A stretch of 39,294 nucleotides of DNA, taken from a virus. Location of the stretch: UHGV virus genome UHGV-0210057; one strand, given 5' to 3'. Below the pieces are notes generated by a model. It searched no databases and was not told where the DNA came from. It saw only the letters and a list, made by a program, of their open reading frames with translations. The number at the start of each line of letters is the position of its first letter. Positions within the stretch are counted from its first letter, which is position 1. Shown piece by piece: positions 3,056 through 32,401 of the stretch. The translations under genes and the position numbers were made by a program.

Positions 3056-3082
3056 AGCCCGCATAAGTGCGGGCTGCTTTTT
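3056..3082. terminator. Rho-independent terminator after emrE (bidirectional, shared with the convergent esterase gene)
   Basis: AGCCCGCA-TAAG-TGCGGGCT hairpin followed by GCTTTTT; the T-run overlaps the esterase stop codon. Confidence 0.6.
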
Positions 3083-4124
3083 ACAGGTCAGCGTTTGTTT
3101 TTTGTTGTTGGGTAGCGGTTTTTATGGGGGTTCCCAGTTTTTTAGTAAACCACTCAACAACTCTGTTTATAATAATTGGCTGATACCATGTATTATCGCC
3201 ATGCTCAGCCCCTTCTACCAGAACGTACTCAGCGTTATCGCCGTTCTTCTTCAACATCCTGAATAGTTTGGCGCTTTGCTCAGGTGAAACCAGAGTGTCT
3301 TTGCTACCATGCATAATAAGAAATGGGGGTTTTACTCCTTTCATATGTCCGATTGGACTGGCGTTTAGCGCTTTTTCTTTTGACGCTGTTATGGGGGCTC
3401 CCGCAAAACTTCTGAATGCAGGGCCATTGATCATTAAGGCTTCGGTTACGGCAGGAGATCGATGAACCTCCTGCACAGATTCAGGGAACCCCTCGCCAAT
3501 ATTCAACAAGTCAGAAATCCCATAAAGTGTGGCAACTGCCTGAACATCTGCTGATTGCTGAAGAAAGTCACCTTTATCAAAGGTTTTGTCACCATTTGTA
3601 GTTCCCATCATCTGGGCAAGCCATCCACCGGCAGAGTCACCCAGAACTCCGATTCTTTGAGGATCAATCCCATAATCGCTGGCATGTTCTCTCAAGTAAC
3701 GTATTGCAGCTTTCCCATCCTCAACTGGTGCTGGAAATGTATCAGGAATTGTTCTGTATTCTACAGCGGCCACAACAAAACCAGCTTCAGCCAGAGCCAT
3801 TCTCATTTCAATAAATTTGTCATGTTCAGAAGACATGAATCCGCCGCCGGGATAATAAATAATGGCTGGTTTTAAATCATTTGTTCGTGGGACAAGAACT
3901 GACATGTGAAGCTGTCTGACAGAACGAGTTCCTTTTATCTGGGAATAAACAACATCACCAATGAGATCGACCTGGTTTCTGGTCGGTGAAACACTAATGA
4001 TATCTGCACCCGGGGTGTAACCAGGAAGATTAGTCTGGACAGGTGTTGCACAACTCCCGACCGACATGGCCATTGACATACCATACAATAGTGTTGCAGA
4101 TGATAATATCTTGTTAATTTTCAT
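3081..4124 (-). CDS. Secreted or lipoprotein alpha/beta-hydrolase (esterase/lipase-like)
   Basis: 347 aa; N-terminal signal peptide with possible lipobox (MSMAMSVGSC); GDSAGG nucleophile motif and HGSKD; opposite strand to flanking phage genes with its own terminator (moron organisation). Confidence 0.75.
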   Translation of the reverse strand: MKINKILSSATLLYGMSMAMSVGSCATPVQTNLPGYTPGADIISVSPTRNQVDLIGDVVYSQIKGTRSVRQLHMSVLVPRTNDLKPAIIYYPGGGFMSSEHDKFIEMRMALAEAGFVVAAVEYRTIPDTFPAPVEDGKAAIRYLREHASDYGIDPQRIGVLGDSAGGWLAQMMGTTNGDKTFDKGDFLQQSADVQAVATLYGISDLLNIGEGFPESVQEVHRSPAVTEALMINGPAFRSFAGAPITASKEKALNASPIGHMKGVKPPFLIMHGSKDTLVSPEQSAKLFRMLKKNGDNAEYVLVEGAEHGDNTWYQPIIINRVVEWFTKKLGTPIKTATQQQKTNADL

Positions 4125-5197: not shown

Positions 5198-5480
5198 TTT
5201 GAGAAAAGCAGCGCGTGGTCGGGAATGCCAGGTAAGAATCCCTGGCGTATGTAATGGCAACCCTGAAACGTCTGTACTGGCACATATCCGGCTGGCTGGA
5301 TTGTGCGGCACCGGTATTAAACCGCCAGACCTTATTGCCACCATTGCCTGTTCTGCCTGTCACGACGAAATCGACCGCCGCACGCATTTTGTCGATGCTG
5401 AGTACGCAAAAGAATGCGCGCTGGAAGGTATGGCGAGAACGCAGGTTATCTGGCTGAAAGAGGGGGTAATCAAGGCGTGA
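5190..5480 (+). CDS. ybcO: YbcO-like (DUF1364) putative nuclease
   Basis: 96 aa from [23 protein letters not shown]... with Cys-rich motif; ATGGCTGA overlap with ninE stop. Confidence 0.75.
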
Positions 5481-5839
5481 ATACTTACCACATCACACTA
5501 CCCTGGCCGCCGAGCAATAACCGCTACTACAGGCATAATCGCGGGCGCACGCACATCAGCGCAGAAGGGCAGGCATACCGTGATAACGTCGCCCGAATCA
5601 TTAAAGGCTCAATGCTGGATATCGGTCTGGCTATGCCTGTGAAAATCCGCATTGAGTGCCACATGCCGGATCGCCGTCGCCGTGACCTGGATAATCTGCA
5701 AAAAGCCGCTTTTGACGCACTCACTAAAGCAGGTTTCTGGCTGGATGATGAGCTGGTCGTTGATTACCGCGTTGTGAAGATGCCTGTTACCAAAGGTGGG
5801 AAGCTGGAACTGACCACTACTGAACTGGGAGATGAATGA
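5477..5839 (+). CDS. rusA: RusA Holliday-junction resolvase
   Basis: 120 aa from a GTG start ([26 protein letters not shown]...), near-identical to E. coli RusA as recalled; GTGA overlap with ybcO stop. Confidence 0.85.
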
Positions 5840-5934: not shown

Positions 5935-5957
5935 CCTGATTTTTGTGGGGAAAGTTG

Positions 5958-6341
5958 ATGCGTGATATTCAGATGGTTCTTGAGCGTTGGGGGGCATGGG
6001 CGGCTAATAACCACGAGGATGTAACCTGGTCATCCATTGCTGCCGGTTTTAAGGGATTAATTCCTTCAAAAGTAAAGTCTCGCCCACAATGCTGTGATGA
6101 TGACGCGATGATTGTTTGTGGATGTATGGCTCGCCTGAAAAAGAACAATAGCTATTTGCATGATTTACTAGTGGATTATTATGTCGGGGGTATGACATTT
6201 ATGTCACTGGCAAGTAAGCATTGTTGCTCTGATGGTTATATCGGGAAAAAGTTACAGAAGGCTGAGGGAATAATTGAAGGGATGTTAATGGCATTAGATA
6301 TACGGTTAGAGATGGATATCGTTGTTACTAAGTCTAATTAA
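5958..6341 (+). CDS. quuD: Late-gene antiterminator Q (phage 82/21 QuuD-like)
   Basis: 127 aa from [22 protein letters not shown]... with Cys-rich zinc-binding region; located after the nin genes and before the lysis genes. Confidence 0.8.
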
Positions 6342-6366
6342 TACGCTAATTATTTACTAAGTGTTA

Positions 6367-6393
6367 TTAAAAAAGGGGCGTAGAAACGCCCCC
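6367..6393 (-). terminator. Intrinsic terminator for the convergent porin transcript
   Basis: GGGGCG-TAGAAA-CGCCCC hairpin; on the minus strand it is followed by a TTTTTT run. Confidence 0.5.
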
Positions 6394-6482
6394 AAAAATA
6401 AAGGGTAATATATAACAGAAGGTTTATATAGTCAGAAGCAAGGTAGTGCTTCTAAAGGAAGTGGCTTGAGGGAGCCACTTAT

Positions 6483-6520
6483 ATGTTGGGGAGGCAAAGC
6501 CTCCCGCAACATATCTTTTT
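6483..6520 (+). terminator. Intrinsic terminator downstream of Q (tR'-like position)
   Basis: ATGTTGGGGAGGC-AAA-GCCTCCC(G)CAACAT extended hairpin followed by ATCTTTTT, about 140-180 nt after the Q stop, the spacing expected for a PR'-to-tR' leader. Confidence 0.5.
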
Positions 6521-6530
6521 CGTAACCAGA

Positions 6531-7628
6531 TTAGAACTGGTAAACCAGTCCTACGGCAACGATGTCGTCAGTGCTTACACCAAGTGCTTTAGTGAAGTCG
6601 TTTTTGTCAAGCAGGTTGATCTTGTAATCAACGAAAGTAGACATGTTTTTGTTGAAGTAATAAGTTGCACCTACATCAACATATTTGACTAAGTCCTGAT
6701 CGCCCCATACTCCAAGATCCTTACCTTTAGATTGCAGGTAAGCAACGGACGGACGCAGACCGAAATCGAACTGATATTGTGCAACAGCTTCGAAGTTTTG
6801 AGCTTTATTAGCAACGAAGTGATCAGCAAATACAGTCATATTCTGGGTTTCAGAATAGGTAGTGGCCAGGTAAATGTTGTTAGCGTCATATTTCAGACCT
6901 GCGGCCCAAATTTCTGCATTTTTACCGGAAGCAAATACTTCAGGAAGAACTTTGCCTGCATTGACTTGAGTGTCGGTACGATCAGATTTCGCATAAGTCG
7001 CACCAATGCCGAATCCTTCGTATTCATAGGTAGCAGAGAAACCGAATCCATCACCGTTACCTTCGGTGTAGTTATCGAAATCGCTACGATCGTTTTTACC
7101 TTGGTACTGAGCAGCAAAGTTCAGACCATCAACCAGACCAAAGAAGTCGTTGTTACGGTAAGTTGCAACACCAGTTGCACGTTGAGTCATGAACACGTCG
7201 GTTTGAGTCCAAGTATCACCACCGAATTCTGGCAGGACGTCAGTCCACGCACCGATGTCGTATGCTACACCGTAGTTACGACCGTAATCGATGGAACCGT
7301 AGTCACCGAATTTCAGGCCTGCAAATGCAAGACGGGTTTTGTCTTTGGCGGAACCTTGAGATTCAGCGCGGTTGCCTTTGAATTCATATTCCCACTGACC
7401 GAAACCAGTCAGTTGATCGTTGATTTGGGTTTCACCTTTGAAGCCCAGACGAACATAAGTAGTATCACCATCATCTGCATCGTTAGAGGAAAAGTAGTGC
7501 TTGGCATTAACTTTCCCGTACAGATCCAGCTTGTTACTGTCTTTATTATAAATTTCAGCTGCCTGAGCAGACATCGCCATCAGTACTGATGCAGCTACAG
7601 CAGAAATTGCCACTGTTAATTTTTTCAT
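6531..7628 (-). CDS. nmpC: OmpC-family general porin (NmpC/Lc-like), apparently intact
   Basis: 365 aa from [23 protein letters not shown] signal peptide; AEIYNKD..LDLYGK start, porin motifs and C-terminal ...VGLVYQF; same position and orientation as nmpC in DLP12. Confidence 0.9.
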
Positions 7629-7706
7629 CGTGAGCCCTTTTTTTGAACTATTATTAAAAAATGATGTCACTGCGCGATAAATATTCATCTAATCAATATG
7701 ATTATT

Positions 7707-8753
7707 TCAAGATGTTGTATGGGTCCACCACATATTGCAATTTTTATTCTCTTTTAAAATATATTCCACGGGCGTCATTAGTGCGAGCGCCTTGTGGGGT
7801 CTTTTGCTGTTATACAGCACCAGATATTCCGCCAGCTTCTGGTTAAATAGCGCCAGATCTTCAAAGAGTAAAATCTCATTAAATTCAATAAACTGCTCTC
7901 TTAACGTCCGGTTAAAACGTTCACAGATAGCGTTCATTTTTGGCGTGTAGGGATAGGTCCAGAGGTGTTTGATAGCGGCTTCCTGCAGCGTTTTGTCGAA
8001 GTTTCCCAGGAACTCTTTTCCGTTATCTGTGATTATCTGGCTGATACCGACCGGGAACAACCGGGCTGCGCGGCTGAAGAAGTGATTGACGATATCACTG
8101 TTGAGTGACGGCACAGCCAGCGCCAGCGCGTAATTGCTGCATTCGTCGATCATGGTGATGACATAGCGACGCAGTTCGCCCATTCTGAGCTCAATGGCGT
8201 CCATCCCAATGAGCTCACCTGTCTTTACCGGGCGGTAGTGCTTTGGCCTGCGGGGTTTGGCAGACCGCTTTTTGACAAGCAGTGCCTTCCCCCGCGATCC
8301 CAGACGCACAGGTATCATCCGCATTTTATCATGTGCGGCAGCGATCATTCTGCCGATGGTGGAAACACTCGGACAGGCCAGATAGCGCTGTTCGCACCAG
8401 GGCTTCAGGCGAACAAAAATCTGCTCTTTACCGAGGTTCGGCAGCTCTGTCCTGAGGCGTCGAATCTCTTTCAGCACATCGGGATGCCAGTGTTTTTTTC
8501 GTCGCACCAGAGGTGCCTTACTGTGCGGGATTAGCCCCTCAGGTCCTTCCTTGTTCAGTAACTGACGCCACCAGTAAAGCGTGCGGCAGGACACGCCAAA
8601 GGCTTCAGAAGCTGCAGAAATACCGTGTTTATCCCAGAAGTGCAGAGCCTTCATTCTCATTGTTGCTATATCAGCCATCACTGAAAGCCTCAACGCATAA
8701 TCGGCCGTTTGGTAGTACTTAGGATAGCCAACCATCAGATGCTGCATTTGCAT
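7707..8753 (-). CDS. IS transposase (single ORF with N-terminal HTH and rve/DDE integrase core; IS481-family-like)
   Basis: 348 aa; rve-type catalytic region (ITDNGKEF...YTPKMNAICERFNRTLREQ...YNSKRPHKAL); AAGGGGAG RBS before the start. Confidence 0.8.
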   Translation of the reverse strand: MQMQHLMVGYPKYYQTADYALRLSVMADIATMRMKALHFWDKHGISAASEAFGVSCRTLYWWRQLLNKEGPEGLIPHSKAPLVRRKKHWHPDVLKEIRRLRTELPNLGKEQIFVRLKPWCEQRYLACPSVSTIGRMIAAAHDKMRMIPVRLGSRGKALLVKKRSAKPRRPKHYRPVKTGELIGMDAIELRMGELRRYVITMIDECSNYALALAVPSLNSDIVNHFFSRAARLFPVGISQIITDNGKEFLGNFDKTLQEAAIKHLWTYPYTPKMNAICERFNRTLREQFIEFNEILLFEDLALFNQKLAEYLVLYNSKRPHKALALMTPVEYILKENKNCNMWWTHTTS

Positions 8754-8815
8754 AGTGCAATCTCCCCTTACTTATCCGGAGGCAATTGCAATATCTCTGT
8801 GAACTTACACAGATG
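7711..8815 (-). mobile_element. Insertion sequence (IS481-family-like), boundaries approximate
   Basis: Imperfect terminal inverted repeats with identical 11-bp core ATATTGCAATT at 7732-7742 and its reverse complement at 8784-8794; element about 1.1 kb with one transposase ORF; exact ends and target-site duplication not resolved. Confidence 0.55.
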
Positions 8816-9316
8816 TAAGTTTTAGTTTCTCATTTAATTTGTGAAGTAGATCTCTATTTTTATCTGAACTTTTTCTATCGAAACCTATTTATGGCTCTTA
8901 TTTGAACAAAAATAAACCTATTAGCTAATTTATATTAATGGCTGTTATTTATGGTGGTTCTATAATTCGGAAGTTTAATTTAAATCAACTAAAAATAACG
9001 TCGGAAATTATTTATTGGTTATTTGTTGAGGTTTTCTTATGTATTTGTGGTGGTGTTTTGAACACTCGGTAGCATTCTCATAAATATCATTCAGTGGTTT
9101 ACGTACGTAAAAAATTGGTTATGCTGTTAAGAGTGGTTACTTCGTCACACAGCTTAAACCCGCCGTCGAGCTGGTTTTTCCATTTTTTGAGTCTCGATAT
9201 TAGCTGATAACTCAATACCTGAGTTATTCATTGACTCCGAGTCTGTTACGTTTCTGCTTTTTTGCGATACGTTGTATTCCCTCAATTTACACCCGCTTTG
9301 TCTGCGAGGTGGGGTT

Positions 9317-9532
9317 ATGAAATCCATGGATAAGTTAACAACGGGTGTCGCCTATGGCACCTCAGCAGGTAGTGCCGGTTACTGGTTTTTACAGCTGCTC
9401 GATAAAGTCACGCCCTCACAGTGGGCAGCAATAGGTGTGCTGGGTAGCCTGGTATTTGGCCTGCTGACGTACCTGACAAACCTTTATTTCAAGATTAAAG
9501 AAGATAAGCGCAAGGCTGCGAGAGGTGAATAA
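9317..9532 (+). CDS. essD: Class II holin (pinholin, phage 21 S21-like) with dual-start motif
   Basis: 71 aa MKSMDK... with two TM segments; Met1 and Met4 give an antiholin/holin pair; GAGGTGGGG RBS; stop overlaps the endolysin start. Confidence 0.85.
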
Positions 9533-10029
9533 TGCCTCCATCATTACGAAAAGCCGTTGCTGCTGCTATTGGTGGCGGAGCAATTGCTATAGCATCAGTG
9601 TTAATTACTGGCCCAAGTGGTAACGATGGTCTGGAAGGTGTCAGCTACATACCATACAAAGATATTGTTGGTGTATGGACTGTATGTCACGGGCATACAG
9701 GAAAAGACATCATGCTCGGTAAAACGTATACCAAAGCAGAATGCAAAGCACTCTTGAATAAAGACCTTGCCACTGTCGCCAGACAAATTAACCCGTACAT
9801 CAAAGTCGATATACCGGAAACAACGCGCGGCGCTCTTTACTCATTCGTTTACAACGTGGGTGCTGGCAATTTCAGAACATCGACGCTTCTTCGCAAAATA
9901 AACCAGGGTGATATCAAAGGCGCATGTGATCAGCTACGTCGCTGGACATATGCTGGCGGTAAGCAATGGAAAGGTCTCATGACTCGTCGTGAGATTGAGC
10001 GTGAAATCTGTTTGTGGGGTCAGCAATGA
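9532..10029 (+). CDS. rrrD: SAR endolysin (T4-lysozyme-like, phage 21 R-like)
   Basis: 165 aa; N-terminal Gly/Ala-rich signal-anchor-release segment ([18 protein letters not shown]) followed by a lysozyme catalytic region (EG..Y.D..GV.T.C.GHT). Confidence 0.85.
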
Positions 10030-29714: not shown

Positions 29715-30893
29715 TTACTGAAGTTTTCTTCTTGTGTATGTTAGTACATTAAATTTTTTAAACTTACTACACGGTGTCTCAATATATCTAAAACATAGCA
29801 ATGATATAAGCGTGATAAACCCAGAGAGGATTATAATAATAGCTGAAAATACAAGGCTGTTAATTTGATTAACATAGCTAACCGGAAGTATTATTTTAAA
29901 TGTTATAAAAAGTATAATGCCATGTAGAAGATACATGCTATATGTAGCTTCTCCAAAAACTTGACAGGTTTTTATCTTAAGAACTCCAAAAATATCGCAT
30001 CCATTTGATATCAGAATAAATGCAATACCACAGAGTGATATTGTTATTGGATTGTAAGGATTTGGAATTAAAAAACAAGTTACACATAAGATAACGATAA
30101 CGAATAAGCTTGATAATATTTTATTGAAAGGCAAGCTGTTAGGCAGTTTGTGATTTATTTTTGCTGCCAGATAACCAAAAACAAATGATAAAATATGTAT
30201 TTTTAATGATGGATAGAAAATAAAAGCAAATACACTCGCAATACTAAGAATTGTGTAAGTATTAAATTTGTCTCTTCTCATTATAAAAGCCATAAAAGGA
30301 AGAGATAAATAAAAAAACCATTCATAAACAAGTGACCACGGAACTCCGGCCATGATAAGCGACGTCTTGTGAAGACCGTTAACATCAGGCATTCCAAGGA
30401 AAGAAAAAGGAACCCATCTCGCCATAGATATTATGAGATTGGCAATTCCTGTGTTAATTTTCCAATCAGAAACATAGAACACAATTATGAATAGTAGAGA
30501 TAACGAAACCAGATACATAGGTGTTAGTCTCATTATTCTTGACCAAAATAAATCTTCCCAATTTACTGATTTATTCGAAATCAATTTCCCGAAGAACAAG
30601 AAGCCTGTAATCATAAAAAAGAAAATAACAGCTATTTTCCCAATATTAGTATAAAATAACGAATCAGGATCAGACCAAACTCCAGTATGTATGTATTGCC
30701 ACCAGAAACTGGAATGATGAAGGAAAACCATTAAAGCAAGAAATCCTCTAAGCCCATCAATTGATTCACTCCTTCCTTTGATAGGTGATAAGTGTGTTTC
30801 TGTGACAAATATTCTTGCAACCGAAAGTGAAGTAATCACCGATAAAGAAGCAATTAAAAAGCCATTAAATCCGTCAAACATAGAAATCTCCAT
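29715..30893 (-). CDS. Acyltransferase-3 family membrane protein (O-antigen acetyltransferase-like, Oac/OafA type)
   Basis: 392 aa, multiple TM helices, N-terminal motif R..S.DGLRGFLALMVFLHH typical of acyltransferase-3; strongly AT-rich; located between tailspike and integrase as in Sf6. Confidence 0.85.
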   Translation of the reverse strand: MEISMFDGFNGFLIASLSVITSLSVARIFVTETHLSPIKGRSESIDGLRGFLALMVFLHHSSFWWQYIHTGVWSDPDSLFYTNIGKIAVIFFFMITGFLFFGKLISNKSVNWEDLFWSRIMRLTPMYLVSLSLLFIIVFYVSDWKINTGIANLIISMARWVPFSFLGMPDVNGLHKTSLIMAGVPWSLVYEWFFYLSLPFMAFIMRRDKFNTYTILSIASVFAFIFYPSLKIHILSFVFGYLAAKINHKLPNSLPFNKILSSLFVIVILCVTCFLIPNPYNPITISLCGIAFILISNGCDIFGVLKIKTCQVFGEATYSMYLLHGIILFITFKIILPVSYVNQINSLVFSAIIIILSGFITLISLLCFRYIETPCSKFKKFNVLTYTRRKLQ

Positions 30894-31207: not shown

Positions 31208-32401
31208 TTACTCAGCCTTCCCATCAAGCCATTCCGCCCACCACTGCATCATTTCTCTGCGCTTATCTAGATACTGAGCATGGTTGTAAATCCCGCGCAC
31301 AGATCCGCCGTTGGCATGTGCCAGTTGCACTTCAATGGCGTCGGCAGGCCATTCGTGCTCGTTCATAATCGTGCTGAATTCATGCCTGAATCCGTGACCG
31401 CTTTCCAGCCCCTCATAGCCGATTTGTTTGATCACAAGCAATACCGCGTTCTCGCAGATTGGTTTCTTCTTATCGTTGCGCCCGGCAAAAACAAACTCTG
31501 AGACTGGTTTGGTGATTGAGCTTAGCGTAGTAAGAAGTTCAACCACCTGGTCTGACATAGGAACCACATGAATTTTGCGTCCCTTCATCACACTGGCGTC
31601 GATGGTGATAATCCTGTTTTCAAAATCGACGTTCTTCCATTGCATGGAACGAAGCTCTTTCGTTCTTAGGGCTGTGTAGCGTAAGACTTTGGTCGCAATG
31701 AGCGATACGATACTTCCTGAAAATGTTGCCAGTGCTTTGTTGAATGCAGGGATCTGGTCTGCTGGAAGAAACGGGAAGTTCTTCTTGCGGTATCCTTTCA
31801 TGGCGTCTGCAAGGTCAGGTGCCGGGTTATATTTAGCCCTTCCGGTGACAATAGCGTAACGAAAAACCTCGCCGCATCTTCTGCGGGCTTTATTGGCTCG
31901 CTCCATTGCACCGCGATCTTCAAATCTGCGGATTACTTCCAGCAGTTGCATCGGCTCAATATCCTGAATCTCAAGGCCGCCGATGATGGGTAAAATGTCG
32001 TCATCAAACATTTTTGCAAGTTCATTTGCATAGCCTACTGACCAGACTTGCTTCTTGTGCTCGTACCATTCCTTGTAAATGGCGCTAAAGGAATTGTTGT
32101 TAGACGAAGCCTTTTTCGCCTTTACCGGATCGATGCCAACCGAGATGTCTTTCCTCGCGGTCCATGCTTTATCCCTTGCCTCCTGCAAAGTCATAAGCGG
32201 ATATTTTCCGACAGTCAGGATTTTCTCCTTACCGTCAATCTTGTAGCGAAGCTGCCATACCTTTTTCCCTGATACAGGGACATAAAGGTACAGGCCATTA
32301 CCATCGAGAAGGCGGTATGGTTTTTCTTTCGGCTTTGCTGCTTCAATCTGCTTAACGGTGAGCATGGGTAAAAATCCGGTGGGTAAAATTATTTTATCCA
32401 C
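31208..32401 (-). CDS. int: Tyrosine integrase, P4-type (N-terminal DUF4102-like arm-binding domain)
   Basis: 397 aa; N-terminal LTVKQIEAAKPKEKPYRLLDGNGLYLYV..GKKVWQLRY motif, C-terminal catalytic region (HGFRHEF...LAHA......Y). Confidence 0.9.
   Translation of the reverse strand: MDKIILPTGFLPMLTVKQIEAAKPKEKPYRLLDGNGLYLYVPVSGKKVWQLRYKIDGKEKILTVGKYPLMTLQEARDKAWTARKDISVGIDPVKAKKASSNNNSFSAIYKEWYEHKKQVWSVGYANELAKMFDDDILPIIGGLEIQDIEPMQLLEVIRRFEDRGAMERANKARRRCGEVFRYAIVTGRAKYNPAPDLADAMKGYRKKNFPFLPADQIPAFNKALATFSGSIVSLIATKVLRYTALRTKELRSMQWKNVDFENRIITIDASVMKGRKIHVVPMSDQVVELLTTLSSITKPVSEFVFAGRNDKKKPICENAVLLVIKQIGYEGLESGHGFRHEFSTIMNEHEWPADAIEVQLAHANGGSVRGIYNHAQYLDKRREMMQWWAEWLDGKAE

Follow-up and report, generated by a model that had tools for sequence, protein, structure and literature searches.

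The window analysed here, i.e., the whole stretch of 39,294 bp of viral DNA recorded as UHGV-0210057, carries an insertion sequence (IS) that lies physically between the gene for the antiterminator Q and the holin gene, with its transposase gene antisense to the late genes and a porin gene between it and Q. In this placement between Q and the lysis genes (7716-8811, with Q at 5943-6341 and the holin at 9272-9532) the initial annotation was correct. The features on which the account draws are the following:

5414-5839, plus strand: RusA (open reading frame [ORF] list and profile matches)
5943-6341, plus strand: antiterminator Q (PF06530; identity of 76-79% with Q from 933W and further Stx phages)
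6531-7628, minus strand: Lc/NmpC-type porin gene, 365 aa from MKKLTV (Pfam Porin_1, 337 of 337 profile positions)
7707-7710, plus strand: target motif TCAA, adjoining the duplicated pentamer on its 5' side (CAA in all 12 copies)
7707-8753, minus strand: transposase ORF, 348 aa, helix-turn-helix and rve/DDE core (ORF list and profile matches)
7711-7715, no strand assigned: left target-site duplication GATGT (ev099 empty site; 5-bp duplication in 10 of 12 copies)
7716-8811, minus strand: IS481-family insertion sequence, 1,096 bp, ends 5'-TGT...ACA-3' (boundaries from 12 copies and empty sites)
7732-7742, plus strand: subterminal 11-bp core ATATTGCAATT, left inverted repeat (motif count and shuffles)
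8784-8794, minus strand: subterminal 11-bp core ATATTGCAATT, right inverted repeat (motif count and shuffles)
8812-8816, no strand assigned: right target-site duplication GATGT (empty-site comparison and 12 copies)
8840-8855, no strand assigned: CRP/CAP site TGTGAAGTAGATCTCT of the PA-2 porin gene lc, mapped to the window (J02580 annotation; L006, 1434-1454)
9098-9125, plus strand: putative late promoter pR', TTTACG, 16-nt spacer, TATGCT (homology to the 933W pR', annotated 'putative')
9131-9181, plus strand: qut-like initial transcribed region, then a tR'-like hairpin (933W homology; hairpin weakened, GCTGG for GCGGG)
9272-9532, plus strand: phage-21-type holin, first gene of the late operon (profile match)
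9532-10029: lysozyme gene, followed by an Rz-like ORF (ORF list and profile matches)
29715-30893, minus strand: O-acetyltransferase, a reverse-oriented accessory gene beside the tailspike

The IS runs from TGTATGGG on the left to CTTACACA on the right, and its span of 7716-8811 (1,096 bp) follows from the comparison of 12 copies with differing flanks and of empty sites: each of the 11 further copies, set in unrelated flanks, measures exactly 1,096 bp between the same two termini. The extent first given, 7711-8815, captured a real IS and took in, besides the element, the duplication on the left and four of the five bases of that on the right. The terminal repeats are imperfect, with 9 of 13 terminal bases matching, and are followed by a perfect 11-bp core that is offset by one base. 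This core had been noticed from the outset as an inverted sequence near both ends, and it was found exactly where it had been placed: ATATTGCAATT occurs twice and only twice in the 39-kb window, at 7732-7742 (plus strand) and 8784-8794 (minus strand), against a chance expectation of 0.05, and two or more matches were seen in 0 of 100 shuffles.

A single uninterrupted ORF, running from 8753 to 7707 on the minus strand, spans the element. Its 348-aa product, already described as a transposase with an rve/DDE core, does match Pfam rve (E 5e-11) and rve_3 (E 3e-14), together with HTH_32/HTH_28 at its N-terminus. Members of the IS481 family are about 1-1.3 kb long and have terminal inverted repeats that begin 5'-TGT. 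The element agrees with the family in its length and ends (1,096 bp, TGT...ACA, 11-bp perfect subterminal core), in encoding a DDE (rve) transposase with an N-terminal helix-turn-helix, in doing so in one 348-aa ORF without the programmed frameshift of IS3-type elements, and in its short direct target duplication (GATGT here; 5 bp in 10 of the 12 copies). The best NCBIfam match of the transposase is the IS481 model NF033577, whose cut-off of 224 bits it narrowly misses with 221.6 bits; IS3, the next family, scores 98 bits. Identical proteins bear the RefSeq name 'IS481 family transposase' (WP_001178386/WP_016238417). Literature searches for an ISfinder name of the element gave nothing usable. 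It is an already known and very common E. coli IS481-family IS, of which only the insertion site is new and private to this phage.

Uninterrupted empty sites are found in phages ev099, Turner, PhiR29, PA-2 and 434B. The ev099 site reads TTTCAAGATGTAAGTTT, with one GATGT only (in wider context, ...ATTATTTCAAGATGTAAGTTTTAG...), and the ev099-type IS-free junction is TTTCAAGATGTAAG; the window has ...TTTCAAGATGT directly followed by TGTATGGG... at the left and ...CTTACACA directly followed by GATGTAAGTTT... at the right. In records of the phage collection the two flanks lie directly side by side (251 bp matched in two pieces), with an identity of 99.2% in Turner and ev099, 98.8% in PhiR29, and about 94-95% in PA-2, 434B and others. 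The search for a direct-repeat target duplication that the initial annotation had proposed thus returned GATGT at 7711-7715 and 8812-8816, a pentamer that is single in the empty-site phages. A perfect 5-bp duplication accompanies 10 of the 12 IS copies compared. Terminal inverted repeats, with their 11-bp core, and a target-site duplication, either of whose absence had been named as grounds for giving up the initial reading, are both present.

The sites used by the element also resemble one another. In each of the 12 copies, the three bases that adjoin the duplicated pentamer on its 5' side (-8 to -6, counted leftwards from the IS) are CAA, and in nine of them T precedes at -9; a clear preference for TCAA-N5 targets is apparent from these alignments. 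The transposase ORF has no stop codon inside the IS and reads through the left terminus (...CAT ACA / ACA TCT TGA, the slash marking the IS end) into target DNA, where an in-frame TGA (7707-7709) lies two codons past the end of the element. Thus, the complement of the target TCAA, i.e., TTGA, supplies the transposase stop codon, and IS copies without T at -9 have longer ORFs in RefSeq.

These junctions also bear on the possibility of a faulty assembly, in which a copy of the IS from elsewhere in a genome was attached to the phage contig by mistake. The IS is 100% identical to chromosomal and plasmid copies, and repeats of this kind are typical sites of misassembly; however, both IS junctions are present in the window, the empty-site phages join the flanks with exactly the one GATGT that is duplicated here, and the site obeys the element's own TCAA-N5 rule. 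Since a correct target duplication is not expected from a chimera, an assembly artefact is exceedingly improbable.

The insertion is a recent one, because the copy is identical to many E. coli copies and its site is unique. Nine of the 11 other sampled copies are 100% identical to that of the window, and the remaining two differ from it at one base. By megablast, the IS is present at a query coverage of at least 80% in 1,054 of 5,426 complete E. coli genomes, in up to 39 places per genome, roughly 5,900 places in all, and on both chromosomes and plasmids. This particular insertion with its flanks was absent from the 5,426 complete E. coli genomes, from 50,697 phage records and from IMG/VR, the best E. 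coli match to IS plus flanks (83% coverage) being the IS alone. In agreement with these observations, the suggestion that the IS is a marker of recent activity holds well.

The genome that received the IS had been regarded as a prophage in a lysogen, a premise that is doubtful for a circularly closed genome in the attP configuration. E. coli records contain, without interruption and at 100% identity, the 900-nt sequence obtained by placing the start of the window directly after its end. The window is therefore a complete, circularly closed 39,294-bp genome of the Sf6/HK620-like (P22-like) type, IS included, in its attP form. The 39.3 kb fall within the 38.3-39.4 kb range of the closest listed relatives, N7, Sf6, HF4s, Gally and HK620. 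The genes for tailspike, O-acetyltransferase and integrase adjoin one another, as in the attP form; the split at att and the host flanks of an integrated prophage were not found in the window, whose end joins its start and which holds no host genes. Genes for large terminase, portal, coat, tailspike, O-acetyltransferase, integrase and repressor are intact, and the window also encodes an O-like replication protein, nin-region genes, Q, lysis genes and injection proteins. The integrase gene (31208-32401, minus strand) is followed by the early-left genes and that of a CI-like repressor. A further reverse-oriented accessory gene, esterase-like, lies in the nin region (3081-4124, minus strand). That the IS-bearing genome assembled as a free circle argues against its being defective, a circle not being in itself proof of virion production. 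Additionally, NZ_CP172337.1, a small separate record of 44,831 bp, the size of a replicon, from E. coli CE-O153H30, has an immunity region 100% identical to that of the window phage and may represent a related phage assembled as an extrachromosomal circle.

Before an IS in the interval from Q to the lysis genes is interpreted as a polar mutation, the late promoter pR' has to be located. The Q protein of the window is 92-94% identical to Q of porin-carrying lambdoid phages (mEp332, ev099 and the PhiR series) and is distant from the solved Q21 (35.7 bits). The record of 933W, whose Q is 76% identical, annotates pR' (TTTACG-16-TATCAT), qut and a terminator directly after Q. When the 933W segment from Q to +900 was compared with the whole window by blastn, two matches only were obtained, one to the Q gene (5956-6290, 75%) and the other to the pR'-qut-terminator block (9097-9179, 76% identity, E 2e-10), in which the alignment continues past the -10 as AAGAGTGGTTAC... 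and then AACCCGCCG...GGTTTTT. The pR' of the window is thus assigned to 9098-9125 by homology to a 933W feature that is itself annotated as 'putative'. This pR'-qut-tR' block is the most conserved part of the porin-holin spacer, with 9105-9224 essentially invariant among the window, ev099, PA-2 and 434B, and the middle of the spacer is its least conserved part. The -35 of pR' lies 286 bp from the end of the IS, and the block ends up about 90 bp upstream of the holin ORF. Compared with 933W, the -10 (TATGCT) and the pause-like element (TTACTTCGTC) match less well. In the tR'-like hairpin (9156-9181), the counterpart of the first 933W terminator, a G has been replaced by T, as it has in ev099 and PA-2; the 933W sequence folds at -21.9 kcal/mol (z = -2.9), and this stable fold is lost in the window through the replacement.

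The 933W homology was used to place pR' because the window is without the motif of phage 82, whose late promoter combines an extended -10-like element with GCC at +15-17 and a pause at +25 (PMC5001585); these features, absent from the window, fit 933W loosely. Q21-type binding elements are repeats of TGAGCA (PMC6606751), and a site of this type was rejected for the window, where TGAGCA occurs only as isolated copies, none of them near a promoter. TATAAT at 8961-8966 scores better against the consensus but was set aside as a candidate for pR', since conservation of the spacer is lowest there and PA-2 has the element in mutated form; it, too, is downstream of the IS. Directly after Q, neither a homologue of the pR' block nor a promoter of matching quality was detected. 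That position holds only the minus-strand terminator of the porin gene (6393-6374) and a short TTTAC remnant, and a promoter there was rejected. All 36 phage records that match the Q-downstream segment at the DNA level also carry the porin gene and the same holin-proximal spacer, which points to a module order of Q, reverse-oriented porin moron, pR'-qut-tR' and holin. Thus, in the Q-porin-holin module of PA-2, DLP12, 434B, ev099 and their relatives, pR' would be expected after the porin moron and not directly after Q.

Two further elements of this spacer deserve mention. The second 'CRP site' of the 1986 PA-2 record (L006, 1730-1750) corresponds to 9132-9152 of the window. An inverted repeat of qut-like character, GTGGTTAC...GTCAC, falls at the same place, where transcription from the putative pR' would begin, and the CRP label may have been given in error to a Q or pause element. 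The stretch between the IS and pR' also has, at 8886-9064, an AT-rich sequence of about 23 nt in three direct copies, TATTTATGGCTCTTATTTGAACA and two variants of it.

The position of pR' is at odds with the initial annotation, according to which the IS lies inside the late operon and could be polar on the holin, endolysin and virion genes, leaving the phage partly defective unless Q antitermination overcomes the block. Physically, the IS does lie in the interval from Q to the holin, in antisense orientation to the late genes, and its right end has a hairpin and a T-rich run on the plus strand (8796-8813). However, a member of the late transcription unit would be found beyond the point where transcription from pR' begins, to be read by Q-modified polymerase, and the end of the IS, at 8811, is upstream of the sole homologue of the 933W pR'/qut/terminator block at 9097-9179; no pR'-like block follows Q, two other phages (434B and KpF5) carry an IS in the same interval, and the genome is circularly closed and otherwise intact. 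Even a transcribed IS would be met by Q-modified RNA polymerase, which resists terminators, as has been established for lambdoid Q proteins (PMC6606751). Polarity of the IS on late genes is, in view of this evidence, very improbable. Since the pR' homologue is downstream of the element, the IS would lie outside the Q-dependent late transcript, within the reverse-oriented porin moron. The mechanism of lambdoid Q proteins is well established (PMC6606751, PMC4914094), and from it one would expect Q to act in trans at pR', in which case it should make no difference how far the Q gene is from pR'.

The course of events that best accommodates these observations would be the recent transposition of an intact, widespread E. 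coli IS481-family IS into the complete genome of a temperate, Sf6/HK620-like phage, where it took a TCAA-N5 target in non-coding DNA upstream of an Lc/NmpC-type porin gene. With pR'-qut-tR' at about 9098-9181 and Q acting there in trans, the IS would be outside the Q-dependent late transcript, and no polarity on holin, endolysin or virion genes would be expected. That the IS is a recent insertion in the DNA upstream of the porin gene, outside the late transcript, and that the porin is likelier to be affected than lysis, is regarded here as a probable reading, with good confidence. The phage should not be scored as defective on account of the IS.

A different route by which the IS could touch lysis is a host-controlled promoter of the sigma-E type, starting at about 7677, that would add to the expression of the lysis cassette; the transcript would cross the IS insertion point at +39 and be interrupted there, with Q-dependent growth untouched. 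The regulatory region of the DLP12 lysis cassette was cloned as a segment from -121 to +650 (Pasqua et al., PMC7918800), and the primer coordinates of that study place the DLP12 +1 at window position 7677. A rightward sigma-E-like motif, GAACTA-N16-TCACT, precedes this position at 7645-7671, and the region 7645-7677 is invariant among four phages. This conservation may equally reflect an overlapping divergent porin promoter, however, and a transcript from 7677 would still meet the tR'-like region before reaching the holin gene. A contribution of this kind is unlikely, if somewhat less so than polarity on the late genes.

The porin gene was listed as an ORF at 6531-7688, and its likely start is the MKKLTV codon at 7628, with which its length equals that of PA-2 lc. 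Transposase and porin genes point the same way, the porin gene lying 78 nt downstream of the transposase stop and its ATG 87 bp from the end of the IS, and no terminator or stable hairpin was predicted between the two genes. Measured from the centre of the CRP site, a feature that in PA-2 is a sequence-based annotation of 1986, the insertion point lies 31 bp towards the porin gene. The CRP site and the porin gene are now on opposite sides of the IS, separated by 1.1 kb. Wherever transcription starts, a CRP site has to be about 41 bp or more upstream of the start; the IS would therefore either split the core promoter or part it from the CRP site. Candidate core elements left on the porin side are TTGAAA (7710-7705) and an extended -10-like sequence, TGAAATAAT, ending at 7701. 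The porin gene would thus be expected to lose CRP-dependent control and to be left with residual core-promoter elements and with read-through from the co-oriented transposase gene. Altered porin regulation by either means, loss of CRP control or read-through from the transposase promoter, is plausible, and we infer that the likely casualty of the insertion is the porin and not lysis.

Beyond this, it is possible, though doubtful, that the IS has rewired a lysogenic-conversion porin gene, coupling its expression to transcription of the transposase, and that a packaging-competent temperate phage also spreads the IS between strains. Any phenotype would more likely concern the porin, i.e., lysogenic conversion of the outer membrane, and the phage could carry an active IS between hosts. 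On the other side of the porin gene, the Q-to-porin spacer (6342-6530) is highly conserved among porin-carrying phages and has several hairpins on the porin strand. The DLP12 sRNA IpeX is reported at this position. Rfam gave no family match anywhere in the window, for IpeX or for other known RNAs.

Other phages carry IS elements in the same interval. In the DLP12-type module of phage 434B, the porin gene, which lies between Q and the holin gene (S), is interrupted by an IS5 of 1,195 bp. Like the window, DLP12 and 434B (nmpC::IS5) thus have an IS in the porin moron of a Q-porin-holin module, ahead of the lysis cassette; the IS5 inactivates or affects the porin and not lysis. In nmpC::IS5, however, the coding sequence is cut near codon 346, whereas in the window an IS481-family element occupies the upstream regulatory DNA and the porin ORF is intact. 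The Klebsiella phage KpF5 (OR327748.1), a wastewater isolate, carries a 1,096-bp relative of the IS (75% nucleotide identity) between Q and the holin gene. The two elements agree in all 27 nt of the left terminus and almost fully in the right one; that of KpF5 spans the circular junction of the record, which is linearised exactly at an IS end (L017, 1-1096; L018, 1-150), and no clean target duplication is visible at the record ends. Host and phage differ from those of the window, and the KpF5 element is co-directional with the late genes. Taken together, 434B and KpF5 indicate that an IS in the interval between Q and holin is tolerated.

The element itself is alike in all respects to the unnamed E. 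coli IS481-family element that encodes WP_001178386/WP_016238417, i.e., in its 1,096-bp sequence, its termini, its single HTH-rve ORF and its 5-bp duplication, and the window copy differs from it in nothing but the insertion site. As for late control, the region of 933W and other Stx phages has a homologous Q (76-79%) and a homologous promoter-qut-terminator block, as does the window. In 933W, the block follows Q directly and morons such as stx lie downstream of it, whereas in the window about 2.8 kb, comprising the 3' end of Q, the porin moron and the IS, separate the homologous Q segment from the block.
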